DNA of 58,550 bases, from IMG/VR virus record IMGVR_UViG_3300007513_000047, positions 1 to 58,550 of that record. The stretch is one strand, 5' to 3'. Source of the DNA: a virus. Lineage: Duplodnaviria > Caudoviricetes. The translations under genes and the position numbers were made by a program. The notes under the pieces are model-generated. The model was not told the origin of the DNA. It saw only the letters and a list, made by a program, of their open reading frames with translations, and ran no database searches. This document shows positions 6,828-35,268 of the stretch, one piece after another; position 1 is the stretch's first letter, and each line of letters starts with the position of its first letter.

Positions 6828-7803
6828 CGTTCATTCTTCTCTCAAACTCTTCATAATATTCATCTTCTGTAAGATGAACCTCTGCGTAGTTTTGTCTAGC
6901 AAGTTCTAACTTCTCTTTTCTGAAAACTTCGTCTCTTAATTGTAATGACTTTTCTAAAAACTCTTCGAAAGTATAGACTCTTTGCCACTTGTCTATTCGA
7001 TATGAGTTGGTGCAGTCATAGTTTCTCCAAACAAATGGAACAATACCTATTGCAAGTGCCTCTGGATATCTGGCTGTTGTTGCAGTTTCATCTAACCAAT
7101 TAAAACATAATGTTTCTCTACAACCCTCCAATAAAGGATAGAGTTTTCTCCAATCTTTAATCCATTTGGCTTCTCGTTGAACACCAGATGGCATTCCACC
7201 TATAAGTTGGCATGAAAGTTCACTTCTATAAATTTGACGAATGGTCTTTTCTCTATCGTGGCCATGTTTCATACGACCCCAATATCCAAAGTCATGAGTC
7301 TTAGTTGACCCAACCATTTCCGCCAAAGGGTTTTTTAGGGTGTTTATGAAGTGATACTTCATGCCGTGTATGTTACCACTAAAATCGACTTCATCGATAG
7401 TAGTGAATGATTTGATATTAATACCTTTAAATACTTCTTCTCTATATAACTCTTCTGTATCTGCCCTATCACTACAGAACATTATAACATCTTTACCTTC
7501 GAAGAAAGGTCTGATTACATCCATATGTTCGTTAGACTTCGCTAAGTCTTTTGGATTCATCTGTAGTTCACCGTGATATCTGAACTCACTATCACTTGGT
7601 ATAACAATTACATCTGCCCAATCAATAGTCTCAGGTGTTCTCTTTGGTCTTTTATTTTCAAATGATACATTATAAGTATCGTACCTATGTTGAGGATTTG
7701 CTCTCATCCATCTCACATAATTTTCAAAGAAACTATCTAATACTGTCTCTAAAGGTCCATTGTATTTCACAAATGAACGAAGTCTTGCTATAGTTATATT
7801 CAT
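6817..7803 (-). CDS. GT-B fold transferase resembling T4 DNA beta-glucosyltransferase
   Basis: By-eye similarity to T4 BGT as I recall it: KTHDFGYWGRMKHGHDREK vs KTLDVIYGGSFRSGQRESK, and TARYPEALAIGIVPFVWRNYD vs TLRVWETMASDAVMLIDEEFD; similar length. Confidence 0.6.
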   Translation of the reverse strand: MNITIARLRSFVKYNGPLETVLDSFFENYVRWMRANPQHRYDTYNVSFENKRPKRTPETIDWADVIVIPSDSEFRYHGELQMNPKDLAKSNEHMDVIRPFFEGKDVIMFCSDRADTEELYREEVFKGINIKSFTTIDEVDFSGNIHGMKYHFINTLKNPLAEMVGSTKTHDFGYWGRMKHGHDREKTIRQIYRSELSCQLIGGMPSGVQREAKWIKDWRKLYPLLEGCRETLCFNWLDETATTARYPEALAIGIVPFVWRNYDCTNSYRIDKWQRVYTFEEFLEKSLQLRDEVFRKEKLELARQNYAEVHLTEDEYYEEFERRMNDAF

Positions 7804-8210
7804 GATTGGGTTACCCTCCTTCTTAAACCACTACTTGAAAATGAATGTTTTCTATTGGTATAGTAAACTTTTATAGGCAAGTAATCTCCTGTAAAAGTTT
7901 TGTCTTTATAATCTTCACCTATAAATCTTACATCGATTGGTGTTGATTCTAGTAAATCTATCAGACTCGCTTCTGTATCATATGGTATAACTTCATCGAC
8001 ATATTGTATCGCATTAAGTTGTACGAATCTTTCGTATACAGACTGTACTGGTTTATTCTTTTCTTGCCTATCAATAGTTGGGTCAGTCTGCAACCCTACA
8101 ATTAAATGTTCACAATTCTCTCTCGCTTCTTTTAACATTACTACATGTCCTGCATGTAATAAGTCAAATGCGCCACAAGTAAATCCTTTTTTCTTTGTCA
8201 TATATCTCAC
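7800..8210 (-). CDS. TagD-like (glycerol-3-phosphate) cytidylyltransferase
   Basis: GAFDLLHAGH (HxGH), LIVGLQTD, GEDY and RKHSFSSS motifs. Confidence 0.9.
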   Translation of the reverse strand: MRYMTKKKGFTCGAFDLLHAGHVVMLKEARENCEHLIVGLQTDPTIDRQEKNKPVQSVYERFVQLNAIQYVDEVIPYDTEASLIDLLESTPIDVRFIGEDYKDKTFTGDYLPIKVYYTNRKHSFSSSGLRRRVTQS

Positions 8211-9331
8211 CTAATAATATCTATATTACTATTCTTAGACCAAACCTCTAGTTCAGTTCTAAGTCTGTTATCATTTTTTAATTTCTCGTATCTTCTACCT
8301 GCGTGTTTCTTCCACCATGTAATGATACTATCGTATTCAAATCTATCAAAGTTGATATTCTTTTCTAATGTATCAGTTTCTAAATTCAAATACTCTTTTA
8401 CATTCTTGAAACCATATGTTCCAAGATATTGTCTCTTCTGTTCTGTAAGATTCTTTGCATCAACGAAACATTGTTTGAATGGTTTTAACATTTCGCTATG
8501 ATGTTTATCTAATGAATTTCTTATAATAGAAATCATCTTGCCTTGCGTTTTAAGTTTTCTACTCGATGCATCATCATGAACAAGTGGCACTCCATTATTC
8601 TTATTTTCAAACCATTCTTTTAGATGTGCATACTTATCATCATTGATTGACGGAACAAAATCTGAATCAGTTAGTCCTATAAATCTTAAGAATGGTTTCA
8701 TGCCATCATACATCGATGATGATTTAGATGTGCCATATAATGATGTAGTTTCAAACATACAGAACTCTGTATTATATTTCTTGTTTAATGTTTCTCTTGC
8801 AAGATGTGAATTACAAATGCCTGCAAGTAGTTTACCACCTAGATAATTGAAACCAAATGGTTGTGTTGGTATGATATTAAACCCCATGATTGCTGAGTCA
8901 TTAAATCTTCTCATTACATCTTTGTCTAATGTGTTTAAAGGTTTGCCTAGAAATTCATTACGAGGTTTAGAGTTGATAGTAGGAGAACCAAAACGAATGA
9001 ACCCTACAATCTTATTAGTATTAGTTTCATATACAACCCACTTAAGAGTTTTGCCTGGTATCGATTTCTGAATCATTTGAGATGCAACTATATCAATGTA
9101 ATCATCGTATAAAGAAACCTCTCTACAGTCGAACTCCATGTCTTCTGGATGAATCGTAAAGTCTTGAAACATGTCGTCCTCTGGACCCATACCAAATAAT
9201 GATGCAGGTCTATCTGACATTTTTTCTAGTTTTACTTTGCGTAGATAATCATCTATTCTATCAAAATTAGCATAGTAGTCGATAAAGATTTGACCGACAT
9301 ATTGTGCATCTTGTTTTGATAGTATCAACAT
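8207..9331 (-). CDS. DUF4338 (DruA-like), GNAT-related protein
   Basis: IVGFIRFGSP...PFGFNYLGGKLLA...ETTSLYG..SSMYDG...FIGLT motifs, recalled as DUF4338-like. Confidence 0.65.
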   Translation of the reverse strand: MLILSKQDAQYVGQIFIDYYANFDRIDDYLRKVKLEKMSDRPASLFGMGPEDDMFQDFTIHPEDMEFDCREVSLYDDYIDIVASQMIQKSIPGKTLKWVVYETNTNKIVGFIRFGSPTINSKPRNEFLGKPLNTLDKDVMRRFNDSAIMGFNIIPTQPFGFNYLGGKLLAGICNSHLARETLNKKYNTEFCMFETTSLYGTSKSSSMYDGMKPFLRFIGLTDSDFVPSINDDKYAHLKEWFENKNNGVPLVHDDASSRKLKTQGKMISIIRNSLDKHHSEMLKPFKQCFVDAKNLTEQKRQYLGTYGFKNVKEYLNLETDTLEKNINFDRFEYDSIITWWKKHAGRRYEKLKNDNRLRTELEVWSKNSNIDIIR

Positions 9332-9390
9332 AAAAAACCCACCTCCATTATAAACGAAGATGGGTATAATTGTCTAGTGACTTTTTGTAA

Positions 9391-9915
9391 TTATGCTACG
9401 AATTCATCGCCAGGATTCCATGCACAACCTGTAAGACCACCAGCTTTTAATGCTTGTAATGTTCTTAATATTTCTTGTGCGTTTCTACCTGTATCTAATG
9501 CGTTGACTGAAACACTTTGAATTGTTCCATTAGGGTCAACAATGAATGTTGCTCTATAACAAACACCGTTGTCAATATCAACGATTCCTAATTCAGAAGA
9601 TAAATATAGTCCAGTGTCAGCTGCAAGTTCATGATTGATTTCTCTAATCATTCCATTTACATTTCTCCAGGCCTGTTTGCAGAATTCATTATCACCACTG
9701 ATACCAATTACTCTCGCCTCATCGACAAGTATGTCCATAGCGGCAATTTCTGTTGGGCATATGAATGTGAAATCTTTTGGATAAAAGTAAATGACACTCC
9801 AACCAACATGTTCCTCTAAACTTACCTCTGTTATATCGTTTGCAGGATTAACTCCTTGTAAATTAAAAGTAGGAAATTCATCACCTACAGTTAATTGTTC
9901 TCCTTCTCTAAACAT
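9391..9915 (-). CDS. ahpC: 2-Cys peroxiredoxin AhpC
   Basis: FYPKDFTFICPTEI peroxidatic motif, RATFIVDP and GRNAQEILR; start moved to ATG 9915, which has a GAGGAG SD and avoids overlapping the tRNA. Confidence 0.92.
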   Translation of the reverse strand: MFREGEQLTVGDEFPTFNLQGVNPANDITEVSLEEHVGWSVIYFYPKDFTFICPTEIAAMDILVDEARVIGISGDNEFCKQAWRNVNGMIREINHELAADTGLYLSSELGIVDIDNGVCYRATFIVDPNGTIQSVSVNALDTGRNAQEILRTLQALKAGGLTGCAWNPGDEFVA

Positions 9916-9936
9916 TTTTTCTCCTCTGTTTGAAAC

Positions 9937-10008
9937 TGGAGCGGAGTGAAAGTTTCGATACTTCATCTCTCAACTGGTAGTCGAGTGTGTTCTTTACACT
10001 AACTCCGC
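9937..10008 (-). tRNA. non-canonical tRNA-Gly, anticodon ACC
   Basis: GCGGAGT TA GTGT-AAAGA-ACAC A CTCGA-CT ACC AG-TTGAG AGAT GAAGT-ATCGAAA-CTTTC ACTCCGC T CCA: perfect 7-bp acceptor stem, U73, encoded CCA, full cloverleaf; the D-loop lacks GG and the T-arm is degenerate. Confidence 0.85.
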
Positions 10009-10061
10009 TTAGTATTCCATCCTACTAAATCTAGTAGTATTTTACAAGGGGTTTTTTGAAA

Positions 10062-10484
10062 TTATTTAATTTTAATTTCGACTGGTTTATCTTCTTCTGG
10101 AATAATCCTTTCTAAAGATACACTCAATATACCATCTTTCATATCTGCACCCTTGACTTCAATATCGTCTGCAAGTGTAAATCGTCTATTGAAAGTTCTG
10201 CCTGATAAACCTCTGTGAACATACTCAGTATCTTCACTTAGATTTTCTTTTGAACCCTCAATCAAAAGAGTTTCTTTTTCTTTTGTAATGGATATATCCT
10301 TCTTACCGAACCCAGCAACAGCAAGTTCAATACTGAAATTTTCAGCATCAATCTTTACAATATTGTAAGGTGGGTAGTTTGAAGTGTCGTGCAAATGTTC
10401 AGCACGGTTTAATAGTTGAAAAGTTCTGTCGAACCCTATTGCGAATGGGAATGATTTCCCGAAGACATCGTCATAGATTGTCAT
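10062..10484 (-). CDS. small heat-shock protein Hsp20 (IbpA-like)
   Basis: NYPPYNI, IELAVAGF, YVHRGLSGRTF and GILSVSLERIIPEE; start MTIYDD at 10484 with AAGGAGG SD. Confidence 0.95.
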   Translation of the reverse strand: MTIYDDVFGKSFPFAIGFDRTFQLLNRAEHLHDTSNYPPYNIVKIDAENFSIELAVAGFGKKDISITKEKETLLIEGSKENLSEDTEYVHRGLSGRTFNRRFTLADDIEVKGADMKDGILSVSLERIIPEEDKPVEIKIK

Positions 10485-10487
10485 AAT

Positions 10488-10505
10488 AGTCCTCCTTAAG
10501 CGACT
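10488..10505 (-). promoter_or_regulatory. ROSE-like RNA thermometer hairpin over the hsp20 SD
   Basis: AGUC-G-CUU aag GAG-GACU: UCGCU motif with a bulged G paired against the GAGGA SD. Confidence 0.5.
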
Positions 10506-10539
10506 GTTTGTTAAAATACCTAACCTCAAATGAGCATTA

Positions 10540-10870
10540 GGGCGTATGGGATGTCGAACTCTTTACGGTTTCAAACTTCTCGAGCAAATCTAAAACAAGT
10601 TCAACATCTCATACTAAAGTGAGGTTTATTTCCCAACTCGAACACGGAAGGGACTTCTTCCTCAATGCTTCGCAAACGAAGCAACTGAGTCACTCTTACT
10701 TCTGAATCGCCTTCATTTGAACAATTATAAACTGTTCTATGAAAGAACATCATCCGTCTGGACTCAGTAAGATGAAGTTCTCTAGGTCTCGAATTAACGG
10801 TAACCGGATCCCTTCATCGTCCAGATTGTTCTCAACTAATTGGTTTTCATTTCTCTCCCAATCGATTAAT
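10540..10870 (-). ncRNA. candidate large structured RNA (~330 nt), family unknown
   Basis: No minus-strand ORF; several long helices (10544-60/10598-614; 10757-63/10819-25; 10771-77/10812-18; 10666-72/10677-83); sigma70-like promoter immediately upstream. Confidence 0.6.
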
Positions 10871-10883
10871 TACAATCTAGGAC

Positions 10884-10925
10884 TATTATATAGTACATTT
10901 GGTAGCTTAAACAAGGGGTTTTTTA
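10884..10925 (-). promoter_or_regulatory. sigma70-like promoter of the AAAACCCC-TTG class
   Basis: AAAAAACCCC TTGTTT-N18-TATAAT preceded by A-tracts. Confidence 0.65.
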
Positions 10926-11307: not shown

Positions 11308-13197
11308 TTATTTATTGAGTTTACGAACCTCTTTTCTTCCTCTGCCATCATCAAAGACAGGTGCAAATATTTTAACTGGTATGTCTTTACCCTTAACTTT
11401 AATCTCATCTATTTGTTGACATGCAATATTGTCCAATTGCATATAAGTATATTCGGATAAAAGAATTGGTGTATCAAAAGTTCTTGTTTGAACTTCTAAT
11501 CTTGCGCCAAGATTAACTGCATCTCCAACTACTGAGTAATCAAATCTCAATTCACTTCCCATATTTCCTACAATACATGGGCCTGTATTAATTCCTGTAC
11601 CTATTACTACTGGTGGTAAATCCATACCCTCATCTTTAATTTCTTGATTCATTTTCTCAGTGAGTAGTTCTATTTCTATTGCAGTCTTCACAGCCATCTC
11701 TGCATGATTAGGACAATCTAACGGAGCATTCCAAAATGCCATTAAACAATCCCCCATATACTTATCTACTGTTCCACCATTCTCAATTACCACCTTTGTC
11801 ATACCATCTAAGAATCTATTGATAAGTAATACTAGTCCCTCTGGATCATCATTCTTCATATAAGCTTCTGATATGGGAGTGAATCCAACTATGTCTGCAA
11901 ATAAGAAAGACATTTCTTTTCTATCACCACCAAGTCTAAGTTTACTTGGGTCTTTCTGGAGTTCTTCAATCATATCAGGAGATAAATATTTCTGGAACTG
12001 CTTCTTAATTTGTTCTTTGAGTTGGTAGGTCGTATAGTATTGGTTGAAAGAGGCATGCCCGAAAACAACTATGGAGGAAATCGATGACCAGAAAATATCG
12101 AAGAGAACGAGAGATGAAGACCATAAGTAGAAACCCCCACCCACCTGAACTAACACGATACTGGAACTCACTATCGCCGAGTAGACTGTGGGAAGTTTGT
12201 AAACCGATGCCAATATTCCTAGAAGGACTATCAAAAGAAGAACGACTTCTAAAAATTCAAGAAAGTCGGATTGTTGTATTTGAACTCCTGTCGAGACGGT
12301 TTGGATTAGGTTCGCTTGAACTTCGTGGGGATACATTGTACCCACTGGAGTTGAAATTGGATTAGCTAATCCTTCAGCAGTAAGACCATAAACTAGAATC
12401 TTATTCTCTATATCCGATTCTTTTAGGTCTGAGAATGAAATGGAATCAAACTGATTCCAATAAGAAATCATTAAGTCACCGCTTGATGTGGTCTCGATTG
12501 GCGAATCTCTTCCCATTTTTACCCAAACTATACCCTCTTCTTTAGTAACCCTAGTCTGATAATTAGGTTGGTCATAGAAAGCTCTGAGTGTTTCAAAGCC
12601 CAAACTCGGATAGAGCTGGCCATTGGCCTGGATGACAAGCGGAGCGCTCCTGATGGTACCATCAAAGTTAGGGGTTTTCGCCACACTAGGTGTAGCGACT
12701 GTGACTCCCATACCCCAAGCCGAACTTTGTAATCCGGGAATGGGACTCACCAAACCTGGAAAGTTCCATACATGGTCTTGTATATCACCATCTCCAAATA
12801 CAGATGTATTTACGAATGGTGCGTTGCCTGATTCTTTTTGAACTGTTGGTGCAGATGATAATATGGTTAATCTATTCTCTAATGCGTTTGCAAAGACTTC
12901 GTCTCCACCAAATCTATCTTCTTCTGAGAATAGAATATTGAATACATGAGTGTTTGTGTGGTGAGTTTCCCATAGAGTATCAGCATATATCTCTCTAGGG
13001 AATGGGTATTGACCTAGGGCGTCTATCGACTTTTCATCTATATTTACTAGAAGAATGTCTTCTACTTGAACTTTTTCTTTTGATGAATGTAGAACATCGA
13101 AGTAAGACCATCTAACATTATCTATTAAATAAGGCGACCATATCTTTACACCCACCAATGCAACGATAGTGAGTAATACCGTTTTCCAATTATACAT
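11308..13197 (-). CDS. CHASE2-domain membrane adenylate/guanylate cyclase (class III)
   Basis: N-terminal TM, IDEKSI..LGQYPFPR (CHASE2), three TMs, then FADIVGFT, DKYMGDCLMAFW, GNMGSELRFDYSVVGDAVNLGARLE and VKGK; the K and D specificity residues suggest ATP; start MYNWK at 13197. Confidence 0.93.
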   Translation of the reverse strand: MYNWKTVLLTIVALVGVKIWSPYLIDNVRWSYFDVLHSSKEKVQVEDILLVNIDEKSIDALGQYPFPREIYADTLWETHHTNTHVFNILFSEEDRFGGDEVFANALENRLTILSSAPTVQKESGNAPFVNTSVFGDGDIQDHVWNFPGLVSPIPGLQSSAWGMGVTVATPSVAKTPNFDGTIRSAPLVIQANGQLYPSLGFETLRAFYDQPNYQTRVTKEEGIVWVKMGRDSPIETTSSGDLMISYWNQFDSISFSDLKESDIENKILVYGLTAEGLANPISTPVGTMYPHEVQANLIQTVSTGVQIQQSDFLEFLEVVLLLIVLLGILASVYKLPTVYSAIVSSSIVLVQVGGGFYLWSSSLVLFDIFWSSISSIVVFGHASFNQYYTTYQLKEQIKKQFQKYLSPDMIEELQKDPSKLRLGGDRKEMSFLFADIVGFTPISEAYMKNDDPEGLVLLINRFLDGMTKVVIENGGTVDKYMGDCLMAFWNAPLDCPNHAEMAVKTAIEIELLTEKMNQEIKDEGMDLPPVVIGTGINTGPCIVGNMGSELRFDYSVVGDAVNLGARLEVQTRTFDTPILLSEYTYMQLDNIACQQIDEIKVKGKDIPVKIFAPVFDDGRGRKEVRKLNK

Positions 13198-13361
13198 TAC
13201 TGGATCCAGCAAACAGGATATACACACCAGTAAGGATTAGCAAATCCTAATAACCATAGTATGAGAATCCATAATGGGATTTTTACCCATGTTCTGCCTT
13301 TAGACCACTCTCTGAATCGTATGGCGTATGGTGCCATTTTATTAAACAACCAGTCTTGCAT
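13197..13361 (-). CDS. 54-aa membrane protein (not in ORF track)
   Basis: MQDWLFNKMAPYAIRFREWSKGRTWVKIPLWILILWLLGFANPYWCVYPVCWIQ; TAATG overlaps at both ends. Confidence 0.7.
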   Translation of the reverse strand: MQDWLFNKMAPYAIRFREWSKGRTWVKIPLWILILWLLGFANPYWCVYPVCWIQ

Positions 13362-13747: not shown

Positions 13748-14578
13748 TTAGTTTCCTTGCGAAACCGTGACAGAACAACCGCCAGAAGTTTGGCAGTTTT
13801 GTGTAAGTGTATAATTTTGTGTTGTGTTGCCTCGTTGTTCGAAATCGAGAGTAGTTCCAAATGTTCCATTTAATGTTATGGTTGCATTGTGTTCGCCATG
13901 GCCATCTTGAAGATAATCAACAGTATTGTCATCATTCTGAACTGTTAAATAAAATTCTTTTGCACCATCGCCCTTTTGTTTGCCAAAGATTGAGTTATCA
14001 TCTCCATATAAATATATTCTTGCTGAGTGTCCATCACAATTACCTTGTGAACAATTTCGTTGTTGCCCAACTATTTCGTTATCATCTCCATGTATATCTA
14101 CGGTAACATAATGACCGCCACCCTCTGTATTATCAATTGCCCAACTAGTGTCGGTTCTACTTGAGATTTCATATCCTTGAGCCCACCATAACTTATTATT
14201 TGTTCCATAACTAATATGAAACTGAATATCATTCTTGTTGCAATCTGAATTTTTAGTACAGTTCTGCCAGAGTTTAACAGTTTGGTTATCATAGTCAATA
14301 TCACCACCCCAAGATGCGCCAGAACCCCAACTTGGAGAATCATTGGCCCAACCTATTTCGTTGTTAGAACCAACTTGTTTCATTTCAATCACAACATCAT
14401 CTCCATCACCTACAGAAAAGAATATATCGTTGTTGAATCCTTCTTGAATGATATCGATTTCTAAGTTGTCTCCACCTGCTACTTGATTAATGTTGATAGT
14501 ATTATCATCAGATGCTATAACTGATAAGGAAAACAATGTTCCTATTGCAAATGTTTTTATTTTATTTAAAAAATCCAT
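13748..14578 (-). CDS. secreted curlin-repeat-like protein (CsgA/CsgB-like)
   Basis: Signal peptide; repeated Q-x-G-x-x-N beta-arch units (IIQEGFNN, MKQVGSNN, KQKGDG, YLQDGHG, EQRGN); three close Cys pairs. Confidence 0.7.
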   Translation of the reverse strand: MDFLNKIKTFAIGTLFSLSVIASDDNTININQVAGGDNLEIDIIQEGFNNDIFFSVGDGDDVVIEMKQVGSNNEIGWANDSPSWGSGASWGGDIDYDNQTVKLWQNCTKNSDCNKNDIQFHISYGTNNKLWWAQGYEISSRTDTSWAIDNTEGGGHYVTVDIHGDDNEIVGQQRNCSQGNCDGHSARIYLYGDDNSIFGKQKGDGAKEFYLTVQNDDNTVDYLQDGHGEHNATITLNGTFGTTLDFEQRGNTTQNYTLTQNCQTSGGCSVTVSQGN

Positions 14579-14583
14579 ATTAA

Positions 14584-15741
14584 TTAACCTTGTTGAATAA
14601 TAACTATTTCTATTCCATCTCCATCACCAAATGTTATAACACCTTGATAACCTTCTACTTCGGTCTCTAGAGTTCCGGAACCTCCTGCGGCTATTATTAT
14701 ATTTATGTGTCCATTCACATCTCTAAAGAATACTAAGTCGCCATCTTGTTCAAAGATATTATACTGCGATTCTTTATTGAACCCAGCAGATGCACCTCTA
14801 AGTTTGAAACCTGCTATATCTGCGGCCTGTCTATCATCAACCAATACAACTCTAGTCTTTTCTAAAGCTTCAACAACATCTAATAAATCTTGTAAGAAGT
14901 CTACATCTAGATAATCAATATCTAATTCGGAGAAATCTCCTTCCATAGTGTCATCTAATGCATTTGCTTCTAGTTCATTAAACTCTAAGAAGTCGATGTC
15001 TAATACACCTTGGTCTGAGTTCTGCTCATCTGAATATGATTCTTCCATCGCCTGTCTTATCGCAGGTGGTGGATTCACAATAAACATATTGTCAATCATA
15101 CTAGGTGTTATGCCTTGAACAACAACTGATTTAGTTGGTGCGGCCTCAAAAGATGCGACTGTTGTGGCCGCATACGCTTGATTTAAAATCGTTTCACCGC
15201 CATCATTCCATACTAAAATCTCTCCTGATGTTTCACCTGTTGTTTCATCAGGCAAAAGAATGACCATTGTCCTACCCAACTCATCTATGGTTGTGGTGAA
15301 ATCGGTCCCTCTCATCGTAATGTTCGCCGTTGGTGTGGCGACATTAACATTTTGTTTTTTAATTCTATTACCAGCACCCGAGGCAAATCTTGATGTGCCT
15401 CTTACCATTCTAATCGACATCTTTGATAGACTTGGGTCTGGATCGTAATACGCCTCGTCAATATAAACAAGACTGTTTTCTGTTAATGAGAGTTGTTCTG
15501 CATCGAGGAACTCTATTAACATTCTGCCATTGGCAGTTTCCGCTTCATCATATAAAACTATGTCTGTTCCGACATCAGTTTCAAGCCGACTGTCACCTCT
15601 TTTTACGGAAGTGACACCTTTGTTTTCTACAATATCACCAATGGGTTCAGCATAAGCGAACCCACCGTATGATAAAAAAAGACTTAAACTAACTGTCGTT
15701 AGCAGCGTCTTTCTGATTAATTTGAATGATTGCATTTTCAC
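14584..15741 (-). CDS. FecR-domain periplasmic protein
   Basis: Signal peptide; D-x-x-ET-x-x-GR, LTENS and TPTANITMRGTDF FecR pattern; acidic C-terminal region; start uncertain. Confidence 0.8.
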   Translation of the reverse strand: MKMQSFKLIRKTLLTTVSLSLFLSYGGFAYAEPIGDIVENKGVTSVKRGDSRLETDVGTDIVLYDEAETANGRMLIEFLDAEQLSLTENSLVYIDEAYYDPDPSLSKMSIRMVRGTSRFASGAGNRIKKQNVNVATPTANITMRGTDFTTTIDELGRTMVILLPDETTGETSGEILVWNDGGETILNQAYAATTVASFEAAPTKSVVVQGITPSMIDNMFIVNPPPAIRQAMEESYSDEQNSDQGVLDIDFLEFNELEANALDDTMEGDFSELDIDYLDVDFLQDLLDVVEALEKTRVVLVDDRQAADIAGFKLRGASAGFNKESQYNIFEQDGDLVFFRDVNGHINIIIAAGGSGTLETEVEGYQGVITFGDGDGIEIVIIQQG

Positions 15742-18522: not shown

Positions 18523-18834
18523 TTATAATTCTTCGGTTTCATCACCATCGGAATTATCTTTCAGTTGCGAGTGTATCTCGTTGATAACTTGAGCTTTCGT
18601 ACCACTCTTCTTAACTTTAAGAGAGTTTTTGTCAGCAAGGTCAAGAAGTTGAACTTTGGTTAATGTTTTCAGTTCAGCTTTGGAAGTAATTCCATTGTCG
18701 TTCTTATCAGCGACTGGTACCGGTCTCGGTCTTGGTGCTGGTGTCGAACTTACTTTACTACCTTTATCTTTCTTATCAAAGAAAGCGAAGTAAATAACAA
18801 CTAATACGACTACAATTGCAATTGCGTATTCCAT
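18523..18834 (-). CDS. membrane-anchored protein with a Rho-N/HeH-like C-terminal motif
   Basis: N-terminal TM, Pro-rich linker, ELKTLTKVQLLDLA...TKAQVINEI. Confidence 0.65.
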   Translation of the reverse strand: MEYAIAIVVVLVVIYFAFFDKKDKGSKVSSTPAPRPRPVPVADKNDNGITSKAELKTLTKVQLLDLADKNSLKVKKSGTKAQVINEIHSQLKDNSDGDETEEL

Positions 18835-18907
18835 AATATACTCCTATTTCAATTATGAAACTCCATATTAACACTGGAGTTTAAAATTGACAAGGGGTTT
18901 TTTGGGA

Positions 18908-35115: not shown

Positions 35116-35151
35116 AGCTTTGTGCCAGCGGATAGGATAGCTATTAGCAGT

Positions 35152-35268
35152 CTAATGGAAATAGACTACTCCTATTATATATCCACAAAAGAAGAAAGCA
35201 GCTGCCCATACTGGCTCCTGCTTACAAAACTCCCATATATTGGCCCAATAGTCCAAAAACTCTTTCAT
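35152..35268 (-). CDS. 38-aa membrane peptide (not in ORF track)
   Basis: MKEFLDYWANIWEFCKQEPVWAAAFFFCGYIIGVVYFH; GGAGG SD. Confidence 0.6.
   Translation of the reverse strand: MKEFLDYWANIWEFCKQEPVWAAAFFFCGYIIGVVYFH

Follow-up and report, generated by a model that had tools for sequence, protein, structure and literature searches.

A natural tRNA-Gly(ACC) gene of marine T4-type phages, an A34 allele of a tRNA-Gly(UCC) family kept by selection

We describe a tRNA-Gly gene with the anticodon ACC in the IMG/VR virus record IMGVR_UViG_3300007513_000047, whose whole stretch of 58,550 bases was analysed and is here called the window. Judged by comparison with its relatives, this gene is real, expressed-looking, and selectively maintained, and is an A34 allele of a phage tRNA-Gly(UCC) family. 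The family is assigned to pelagimyophage-like marine T4-type phages, where it is sited in the replication module. Glycine tRNAs with A34 are termed “never observed” or “banished” in passages of PMC7293025 and PMC6720975, and sections of these two papers and of PMC4928997 present as debated why nearly all organisms lack tRNA-Gly(ACC). A literature search limited to article texts turned up no earlier account of a phage whose natural tRNA-Gly has ACC. As to the role of the tRNA, descent from an ordinary phage tRNA-Gly and an intact decoding loop lead us to favor, with a confidence that stops a little short of even, a working elongator that prefers GGU.

The gene lies on the minus strand (Table 1) and folds into a cloverleaf with the acceptor stem GCGGAGU/ACUCCGC (G1-C72, C2-G71, G3-C70), followed by U8 and A9, a D-stem GUGU/ACAC with the 5-nt D-loop AAAGA, an anticodon stem CUCGA/UUGAG with the loop CUACCAG (U33, A34-C35-C36, A37, and G as base 38), and the variable region AGAU. 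Its T-stem GAAGU/CUUUC consists of G-C, A-U, A-U, G.U, and a U53.C61 mismatch at the end; the T-loop is AUCGAAA, the discriminator is U73, and CCA is encoded. The minus strand folds at −23.6 kcal/mol, where shuffled sequences average −13.3 (z = −3.98, with 0 of 200 shuffles folding as well). Read from the sequence, the glycyl-tRNA synthetase (GlyRS) identity set is complete (G1-C72, C2-G71, G3-C70, U73, C35, C36); the determinants listed in PMC7826273 are G1-C72, C2-G71, U73, C35, and C36. An earlier note made from the letters of this DNA had described these elements and the CCA as intact, and all of them are found on the minus strand; its proposal that the tRNA can be charged is also supported as far as the sequence tells, with the GlyRS determinants present and C35, C36, and A37 invariant among all 22 distinct close relatives. 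The canonical elbow is incomplete, with one D-loop G, C56, A58, and C61 present and G18, G53, and U54 absent. The T-loop and the weak T-stem with its closing mismatch (G.U and then U.C at the end) are as the note had given them. Its description of a 5-nt D-loop devoid of G18G19 stands insofar as there is no GG, but one G remains. This sole G aligns, in a model-based alignment, with a G found in 24 of 24 rows, and since C56 and C61 are invariant in the 22 relatives, the G19-C56 elbow pair is probably retained.

Detection of the gene depends on the tool and filters used. Once the filters are made permissive, 9940-10008 (−) is matched by RF00005 with 41.4 bits (gathering threshold 29, E = 1.3e-7), and a search of the whole record gives 41.4 bits again (E = 4.9e-9), whereas ARAGORN calls no tRNA in the window and a default-filter Rfam scan likewise yields no match. 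A family covariance model (R1) scores the window tRNA at 86 bits. The ORF (open reading frame) listed at 9391..9966, with 191 aa, begins within the T-arm of the tRNA and is a false extension of AhpC, as the note had suspected; the true start is the ATG at 9915, with relatives aligning from residues 1-10. A contig from an independent DNA run covers 7000-10908 with 16 differing letters, none of them listed within the tRNA, and the ACC anticodon is therefore not an assembly artefact. In practical terms, a gene of this kind escapes standard tRNA finders and the default filters of Rfam, and ORF calling hides it beneath ahpC.

The structure is maintained across the family. We evaluated the cloverleaf and the 32-38 pair on a MAFFT alignment of the 22 distinct close relatives, and observe that 97.1% of stem cells are paired compared with 76.2% in shuffles (0 of 500 reach the observed value), with 12 of the 22 pairs changed on both sides and a covariation score of 0.516 compared with 0.116 in shuffles. 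When partners were slid by 1 to 3 columns as a control, 40 to 51% of cells were paired. All five anticodon-stem pairs and four of the five T-stem pairs covary, as does the 32-38 pair (C-G in 11 sequences, U-A in 4, A-U in 3, G-C in 2, and unpaired in 2). The nine ACC sequences taken alone keep 193 of 198 cells paired, with several pair types per position. Conservation of the acceptor stem, bases 8-14, and the CCA is by construction, since the search pattern fixes them. U33, C35, C36, A37, C56, and C61 are invariant in 22 of 22 relatives, and C35, C36, and A37 are not fixed by the pattern. The covariation that the earlier note had suggested looking for in homologues is therefore present, with no random decay into broken stems.

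Within the sublineage of the window, the tRNA has changed far less than its surroundings. At locus L091 it is identical to that of the window (72/72), with pooled 4-fold sites of the flanking genes at 84% (P ~4e-6 under drift at that rate), and at L156 it is again identical (72/72), with pooled 4-fold sites at 87% (P ~3e-5). L111 has 67/72 identical positions with pooled 4-fold sites at 76% (P = 1.4e-4 for five or fewer differences), and its five differences include the compensatory change from A51-U63 to U51-A63 and a change from G.U to A-U. The U53.C61 mismatch and A54 are common to the window and L111, the only 2 of the 22 sequences without G53-C61, and are fixed derived traits rather than random damage. 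These comparisons indicate that the tRNA gene of this sublineage is under purifying selection, and the word “eroded”, which the earlier note had applied to the loops, is misleading for derived features under such selection. A decaying relic of a UCC tRNA, with anticodon and loops adrift, would fit the failure of ARAGORN, the U53.C61 mismatch, A54, and the 5-nt D-loop. We nevertheless give such a pseudogene hardly any probability: the tRNA is unchanged (72/72) across contigs that have diverged by 13-16% at 4-fold sites, compensatory changes occur both in the sublineage and among ACC alleles, the promoter is conserved, and a gene that is real, expressed-looking, and under purifying selection is not what decay predicts.

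Alleles also move between backgrounds. L088 has an ahpC that is 91% identical in DNA to that of the window, yet it carries a UCC tRNA with different stems, and L091 has the identical ACC tRNA but an ahpC only 78% identical in DNA, from which it follows that tRNA alleles are shuffled by recombination. A recombination breakpoint falls between tRNA and ahpC in this mosaic (9391-10008 compared with L088 and L091).

The AhpC search of IMG/VR gave 584 confirmed relatives, the best 80 of which formed the AhpC-anchored locus set. ARAGORN, applied to 60 loci, calls a tRNA-Gly immediately upstream of ahpC in 15 of them (7 ACC, 8 UCC), the UCC alleles occupying the identical slot. A covariance model built from seven sequences finds the element in 16 of the 80 loci as well as in the window, and the copy in L003 is identical to that of the window. 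A two-end tRNA pattern (acceptor stem, bases 8-14, and CCA fixed) recovered 109 stretches from IMG/VR, representing 48 distinct sequences, with ACC in 19 stretches (nine sequences); some contigs are in both locus sets. The same tRNA also occurs without ahpC (L156) and, in other lineages, downstream of a gene for a DruA-family protein with a predicted GNAT fold. By blastn against GenBank phages neither the tRNA nor the 1.3-kb locus has a match.

Cyanophage S-SSM7 carries a canonical tRNA-Gly(UCC), SSSM7_181, between hsp20 and gp43. It resembles the window tRNA in its acceptor type, its AT-rich body, and its position in the same module (hsp20 - gp43), and differs in having a GG D-loop, the T-loop UUCGAUU, UCC, and no encoded CCA, where the window tRNA has A34, no G18, A54, U53.C61, and CCA. 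A relative whose record is 77% complete encodes tRNA-Arg(UCU), tRNA-Thr(UGU), and tRNA-Gly(UCC) together, a trio that is a typical codon supplement for an AT-rich phage. From its sequence, the family looks to be descended from an ordinary phage elongator tRNA-Gly(UCC). A cellular source was considered and rejected: the pattern matched 13 stretches across 185,579 species genomes, with neither an ACC member nor a marine host match among them, and the UCC tRNAs of Phocicoccus have only the acceptor type in common with the family. Among these, L193 and L203 (Phocicoccus, Staphylococcaceae tRNA clusters) have tRNA-Gly(UCC) genes without GG in the D-loop and with the T-loop UUUAAAU, two of them in tandem in L203; these are presumably cell-wall-type tRNA-Gly genes outside the genus Staphylococcus.

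With respect to expression, a promoter-like element precedes the tRNA. The flank alignment shows a block AAAAA(A/C)CCCCTTG, a variable spacer, and TAnnAT, with both hexamers kept in the 10 relatives that cover the element (TTGTAA and TAGGAT in the window, TTGCAA and TATAAT in L096). The composite motif has three copies in the window, each of them on the coding strand, and none in 100 shuffles. At one sister copy, the stretch 10563-10882 (−) is present in contigs of three metatranscriptome runs from two studies, at word depths (21.9, 67.7, and 7.1) that exceed those of the rest of the 6-kb stretch compared, and contigs starting at this sister promoter suggest that the promoter class of the tRNA is active in the sea. 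The third copy, AAACCCCTTG-N-TAATAT at 18865-18900 (−), stands upstream of an ORF at 18523-18834.

Downstream, ahpC is probably co-transcribed with the tRNA. A tRNA-shaped processing signal, at which RNase P/Z cleavage would define the 5' end of the ahpC message and which would not chiefly carry an amino acid, would agree with a position 10 nt after the promoter and 21 nt before the ahpC start. We judge it very improbable, given that this same tRNA is found where ahpC is missing (L156) and, in other lineages, downstream of the GNAT gene, and that a processing signal does not need invariant C35, C36, U73, and CCA.

Under the elongator reading, a conserved sigma-70-like promoter of its own would drive transcription of the tRNA ahead of ahpC, and host RNase P together with 3' processing would free it. 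Host GlyRS would then glycylate it via C35, C36, U73, and the first three acceptor pairs, without reading base 34. [quoted passage not shown] Whether A34 would be converted to inosine bears on the codons read. A TadA substrate has ACG in a tRNA-Arg-type loop; the window tRNA has ACC, with G as base 38. E. coli TadA modified only 3 of 15 A34 anticodons tested and left the ACC tRNA unmodified, as stated in parts of PMC11066159, and no member of the cytidine/adenosine-deaminase family PF00383 occurs in the window or in four related records (32-77% complete). Based on these two lines, A34 most likely stays an unmodified adenosine. Parts of the same paper report that an orthogonal ACC tRNA in E. 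coli, which carries no inosine, reads GGU best, GGC and GGG less, and GGA not at all.

The ribosome would thus use the phage tRNA as an unmodified-A34 reader, with Watson-Crick pairing to GGU, the commonest glycine codon of the phage (GGT 554 of 1,047 in the window, or 53%, followed by GGA 281, GGC 144, and GGG 68). Some reading of GGC and GGG would be expected as well, since the first two codon pairs are G-C; wobble and “two-out-of-three” reading are established for G/C-rich codons. If U34 is likewise unmodified, U34 and A34 would both read most of the GGN box, the alleles would be near-equivalent, and switching between them would be explained. In the window, Arg is encoded by AGA in 74% of cases and Thr by ACA in 48%. 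Two known cases resemble this situation. The engineered E. coli tRNA-Gly(ACC) and orthogonal tRNA(ACC) (parts of PMC11066159; Boren 1993 as cited in PMC4928997) have the same anticodon, are chargeable, and read GGU best, but they are laboratory constructs, while the phage ACC is a natural, recurring allele kept by selection. Mycoplasma tRNA-Thr(AGU), as described in a portion of PMC11066159, has an A34 that is probably not deaminated and reads beyond the U-ending codon; it differs in the amino acid.

Allele switching is frequent. The tree of the neighboring DruA-family protein, built from 29 distinct rows out of 55 loci in which the gene is near full length (identical rows, and loci that lack the gene, were left out), requires at least five ACC/UCC changes, four of them forced by well-supported branches. 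The nearest tRNA relatives of ACC alleles are often UCC, such as L083, which is 93% identical to L152 and L088.

Several observations weigh against a plain role in elongation. ACC and UCC read different codon sets and nevertheless interchange at least five times, and glycine codon usage shows no difference between ACC and UCC loci, with a GGT share of 0.52-0.64 in six ACC variants and 0.31-0.73 in eight UCC variants. Close relatives keep U33, A37, a 7-nt loop, and the covarying 32-38 pair, yet the wider pattern set has G33 (loop UGUCCAA) in 17 stretches and a 6-nt loop UUCCAA in five, with C35 and C36 remaining. Eighteen of the 22 relatives no longer have G18 and 13 no longer have U55, and the sublineage of the window is also without G53 and U54. 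Metatranscriptome contigs from the three runs cover parts of ahpC, hsp20, and 10563-10882, and none covers 9814-10014 or the tRNA; this would count against expression at face value, yet for contigs and a small structured RNA it is no evidence either way. Finally, EF-Tu affinity, calculated from the published additive table for three T-stem pairs (PMC3239215 Table 2), is −9.4 kcal/mol for the window tRNA (G49-C65, A50-U64, A51-U63), with glycine class means of −10.8 (sd 0.68) for UCC and −11.0 for GCC and CCC (PMC3239215). Among the 17 of 22 relatives for which the value could be computed, 15 are at −9.5 or weaker and one is within one sd of the Gly-UCC mean.

The abnormal anticodon loops of the wider set include G33 in L082, L086, L097, and others, 6-nt loops of the L118, L133, and L142 types, and an 8-nt loop in L164, for which ARAGORN gives the anticodon AACC. 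The T-loop starts with UGC in 10 of the 22 close relatives, GGC in 3, UUC in 7, and AUC in 2, including the window, and a D-loop GG is kept in only four, all with a UUC T-loop. D- and T-loop states are linked, with U55 in 4 of 4 GG sequences and A-G in place of G18-G19 in 13 of 13 G55 sequences (counts from related sequences that are not independent), which hints at a replaced 18-55 tertiary contact. The co-resident tRNAs of the phage with the trio behave otherwise: tRNA-Arg(UCU) is calculated at −9.5 (class mean −9.3) and tRNA-Thr(UGU) at −10.0 (class mean −9.8), and RF00005 scores these two, which have canonical loops, at 70.4 and 68.8 bits and the tRNA-Gly at 56.1. Since tRNA-Arg and tRNA-Thr are canonical and tRNA-Gly is the odd one, AT-richness alone has not eroded the tRNAs of this phage group.

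These features recall the staphylococcal non-proteogenic tRNA-Gly species NP1-3, the donors for FmhB, FemA, and FemB. In both cases the GlyRS set is kept and the D-loop GG is lost; the staphylococcal tRNAs are noted for a T-loop with UGC or UGU instead of UUC (PMC7826273), and 13 of 22 members of the phage family are without U55. Pair 51-63 is A-U or U-A, and the staphylococcal T-stem (A49-U65, U50-A64, A51-U63) comes to about −9.5 kcal/mol by the table of PMC3239215, against a class mean of −10.8 and next to −9.4 for the window tRNA. The differences are that the staphylococcal NP anticodon is UCC, that this lineage is reported only in staphylococci (PMC7826273), that the window T-loop has AUC rather than UGC, and that no PF02388 Fem gene was found in five phage records, which are 32-77% complete. 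The host of the phage is presumably a Gram-negative marine bacterium.

By analogy, the phage tRNA could be a dedicated glycyl donor, charged by host GlyRS but a poor substrate of EF-Tu and the ribosome, whose glycine would go to a tRNA-dependent transferase that modifies phage DNA or some other substrate, with the DruA-family GNAT encoded nearby as the candidate enzyme; Mu Mom and the staphylococcal division between Fem and NP tRNAs would be the parallels. We regard this as rather doubtful, though well worth weighing. The calculated affinity, which equals that of the staphylococcal tRNA, with 15 of 17 relatives as weak and normal co-resident tRNAs, fits such a donor, as do the UGC-type T-loops (G55 in 13 of 22) and the strict maintenance of the GlyRS set and CCA while base 34 flips and G33 or 6-nt loops appear in the wider family. 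A caution comes from Pelagibacter, where the single-copy tRNA-Gln and tRNA-Thr are also predicted to be EF-Tu outliers, and four of five single-copy outliers tested were normal (PMC3239215). The earlier note had gone further and held that the tRNA is excluded from translation. The weak EF-Tu T-stem, G55, the canonical co-resident tRNAs, and the GNAT gene support that claim in part, while the retained U33, A37, 7-nt loop, and covarying 32-38 pair, the ordinary-elongator ancestor, and the frequency of false EF-Tu outlier predictions count against it.

The candidate enzyme belongs to a large family, with 6,735 relatives in the protein collection, and is widespread in marine T4-like phages; among cultured phages, cyanomyoviruses and HTVC008M have the gene, with those for clamp loader and polymerase next to it. 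The protein is of the same family as DruA of Druantia and comprises a GNAT-fold core and a helical C-terminal half. An AF2 model with a 21-sequence alignment reached a pLDDT of 82 and a pTM of 0.77 (a single-sequence model, with a pLDDT of 34.5, was unusable). Foldseek returned weak matches only, nearly all of them GNAT acyltransferases (E = 4e-3 to 4e-2), and in VIA-align almost all of the top 50 rows are GNATs (Z = 7.1-8.6), with Mu Mom (8bv8_B) first equal at Z = 8.6 (rmsd 4.0, 165 residues), ordinary GNATs at 8.0-8.6, and FemA at 7.7. A GNAT fold is thus supported by the model. The family profile finds only RecX among PDB sequences (E = 0.99), and an ESM Atlas search returns only DruA clusters.

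Mom moves glycine from Gly-tRNA-Gly to the N6 of adenine in double-stranded DNA (parts of PMC13219725), which makes it a phage GNAT-fold enzyme that uses this tRNA outside translation, and a passage of PMC12801897 likens the structure of a cyanophage homologue of the DruA-family protein to that of Mu Mom. The resemblance is one of fold. Homology to Mom by sequence was rejected (hhalign probability 0.3%; Mom is PF25680 and the neighbor PF14236), PF25680 has no match in the five phage records, the Z score of Mom is tied with those of ordinary acetyl-CoA GNATs, and the neighbor has a Q-x-x-G-type motif. Other transferases of this kind (PF02388 for Fem, and PF13480 and PF09924 for Acetyltransf_6 and LPG_synthase_C) are equally without a match in the five records, which are 32-77% complete. 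Moreover, Mom accepts all host isoacceptors, so that a private donor is not required, and PMC13219725 reports no phage-encoded tRNA for it.

Linkage points both ways. In several lineages that differ in gene order, about 0-2 kb separates the tRNA from the GNAT gene, but HTVC008M and the single-cell virus record AG-345-O18 have the GNAT gene with no tRNA within 5 kb, S-SSM7 has the two 3.2 kb apart, and in the largest UCC lineage the tRNA stands beside hsp20 with the GNAT gene 7-8 kb off or unseen; given these cases, the linkage is maybe plain synteny in the replication module. As a user of Gly-tRNA the DruA-family protein is a candidate by inference only. We consider it unlikely that the tRNA is a non-proteogenic glycyl carrier in the full sense, GlyRS-chargeable, tuned away from EF-Tu and the ribosome, and feeding the neighboring GNAT for a Mom-like, tRNA-dependent modification of phage DNA or a different target, a role that would explain the drift of the wobble base between U and A.

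Anticodon-loop variation could also serve counter-defense. With its loop altered (A34 in the window, G33 or another loop size elsewhere), a phage-supplied tRNA-Gly would evade a host anticodon nuclease or tRNA-depleting defense, or act as a sink for it, and still support translation. Phage tRNAs that escape anticodon nucleases by loop changes have been described, and the loop is unusually diverse in the wider family (CUUCCAG, CUACCAG, AUACCAU, AUUCCAU, UUUCCAA, GUUCCAC, UGUCCAA, and 6-nt or 8-nt forms), with recurrent U/A switching. We know of no glycine-specific anticodon nuclease. The D- and T-loop losses and the weak T-stem would remain unexplained, and we assign this explanation a small probability.

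Natural ACC alleles that stand beside UCC alleles in abundant ocean phages, structurally constrained and promoter-driven, allow tests of A34 tolerance, of the codons read, and of the modification state in a glycine tRNA. The family also shows that traits typical of the cell-wall tRNA-Gly of staphylococci, namely missing U55 and G18 and a T-stem weak for EF-Tu, have arisen independently in phages, where they stand near a GNAT-fold gene. Whichever function proves correct, the outcome informs either phage translation takeover or DNA hypermodification in the sea. If the glycyl carrier were true, no virus known before would have supplied a donor tRNA of its own to a reaction outside the ribosome, and a function would be at hand for a gene that thousands of marine T4-like phages share with Druantia defense systems.

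Table 1. Features of the window around the tRNA-Gly(ACC) gene
Feature	Position	Strand	Remarks
DruA-family protein, 374 aa	8207..9331	minus	Pfam PF14236, E 4e-7; phrog_19197 over full length; replication module
AhpC/TSA-family peroxiredoxin, 174 aa	9391..9915	minus	Pfam PF00578, E 9.8e-25; downstream of tRNA
Spacer, 21 nt, CCA to AhpC start	9916..9936	minus	Contains ribosome-binding site GAGGAG (9926-9921), conserved in relatives
tRNA-Gly(ACC) gene	9937..10008	minus	72-nt cloverleaf including encoded CCA (9939-9937); anticodon A34 C35 C36 at 9978-9976
Promoter-like element AAACCCCTTG-N20-24-TANNAT	10019..10054	minus	TTGTAA 10047-10042, TAGGAT 10024-10019; ends 10 nt ahead of tRNA G1
Hsp20 small heat-shock protein	10062..10529	minus	Pfam PF00011, phrog_432, synteny; conserved neighbor upstream of tRNA
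Second promoter-motif copy (AAACCCCTTG...TATAAT)	10921-10885	minus	At edge of RNA-run contigs (10563-10882)
CHASE2-sensor adenylate/guanylate cyclase	11308-13227	minus	Conserved beside tRNA region in relatives, 57-93% identity
Curlin-repeat protein	13748-14578	minus	Fits pelagimyophage curli cluster
FecR-domain protein	14584-15741	minus	Fits pelagimyophage curli cluster

The record has a CheckV completeness of 32%, with long ORFs all on the minus strand, and encodes T4-type sheath, terminase, portal, scaffold, and major head proteins, a helicase, an SbcC-like nuclease, and a family-B polymerase. Its major head protein is nearest to those of OM43 phage Melnitz (66.8%) and the Pelagibacter phages HTVC008M (66.1%) and Mosig (63.7%), and a curli cluster is reported for pelagimyophages in part of PMC7029224. 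From 5' to 3' on the minus strand, the order is CHASE2-cyclase, a 75-aa ORF, hsp20, tRNA, ahpC, the DruA-family protein, and a cytidylyltransferase-like protein, with the DNA polymerase further downstream.

A 64-nt element at 35123-35186 (−) scores 17 bits with the family model (E = 0.33; fold z = −3.3). It combines an acceptor-like stem of 7 bp with the hairpin GUCUA-UUUCCAU-UAGAC, the stem of which matches the anticodon stem of the L096-type tRNA-Gly, and has no T-arm. It was rejected as a second tRNA, not being a tRNA by Rfam, and may be a tRNA-Gly(UCC) remnant or a product of chance. The transcribed stretch 10563-10882, between the 75-aa ORF and hsp20, has no Rfam match at E ≤ 0.1, contains only a 50-aa ORF (10601-10753), and starts just after the promoter-motif copy; it could be a long hsp20 leader or an unassigned small RNA, and some strains have an insertion of about 30 nt at 10818.

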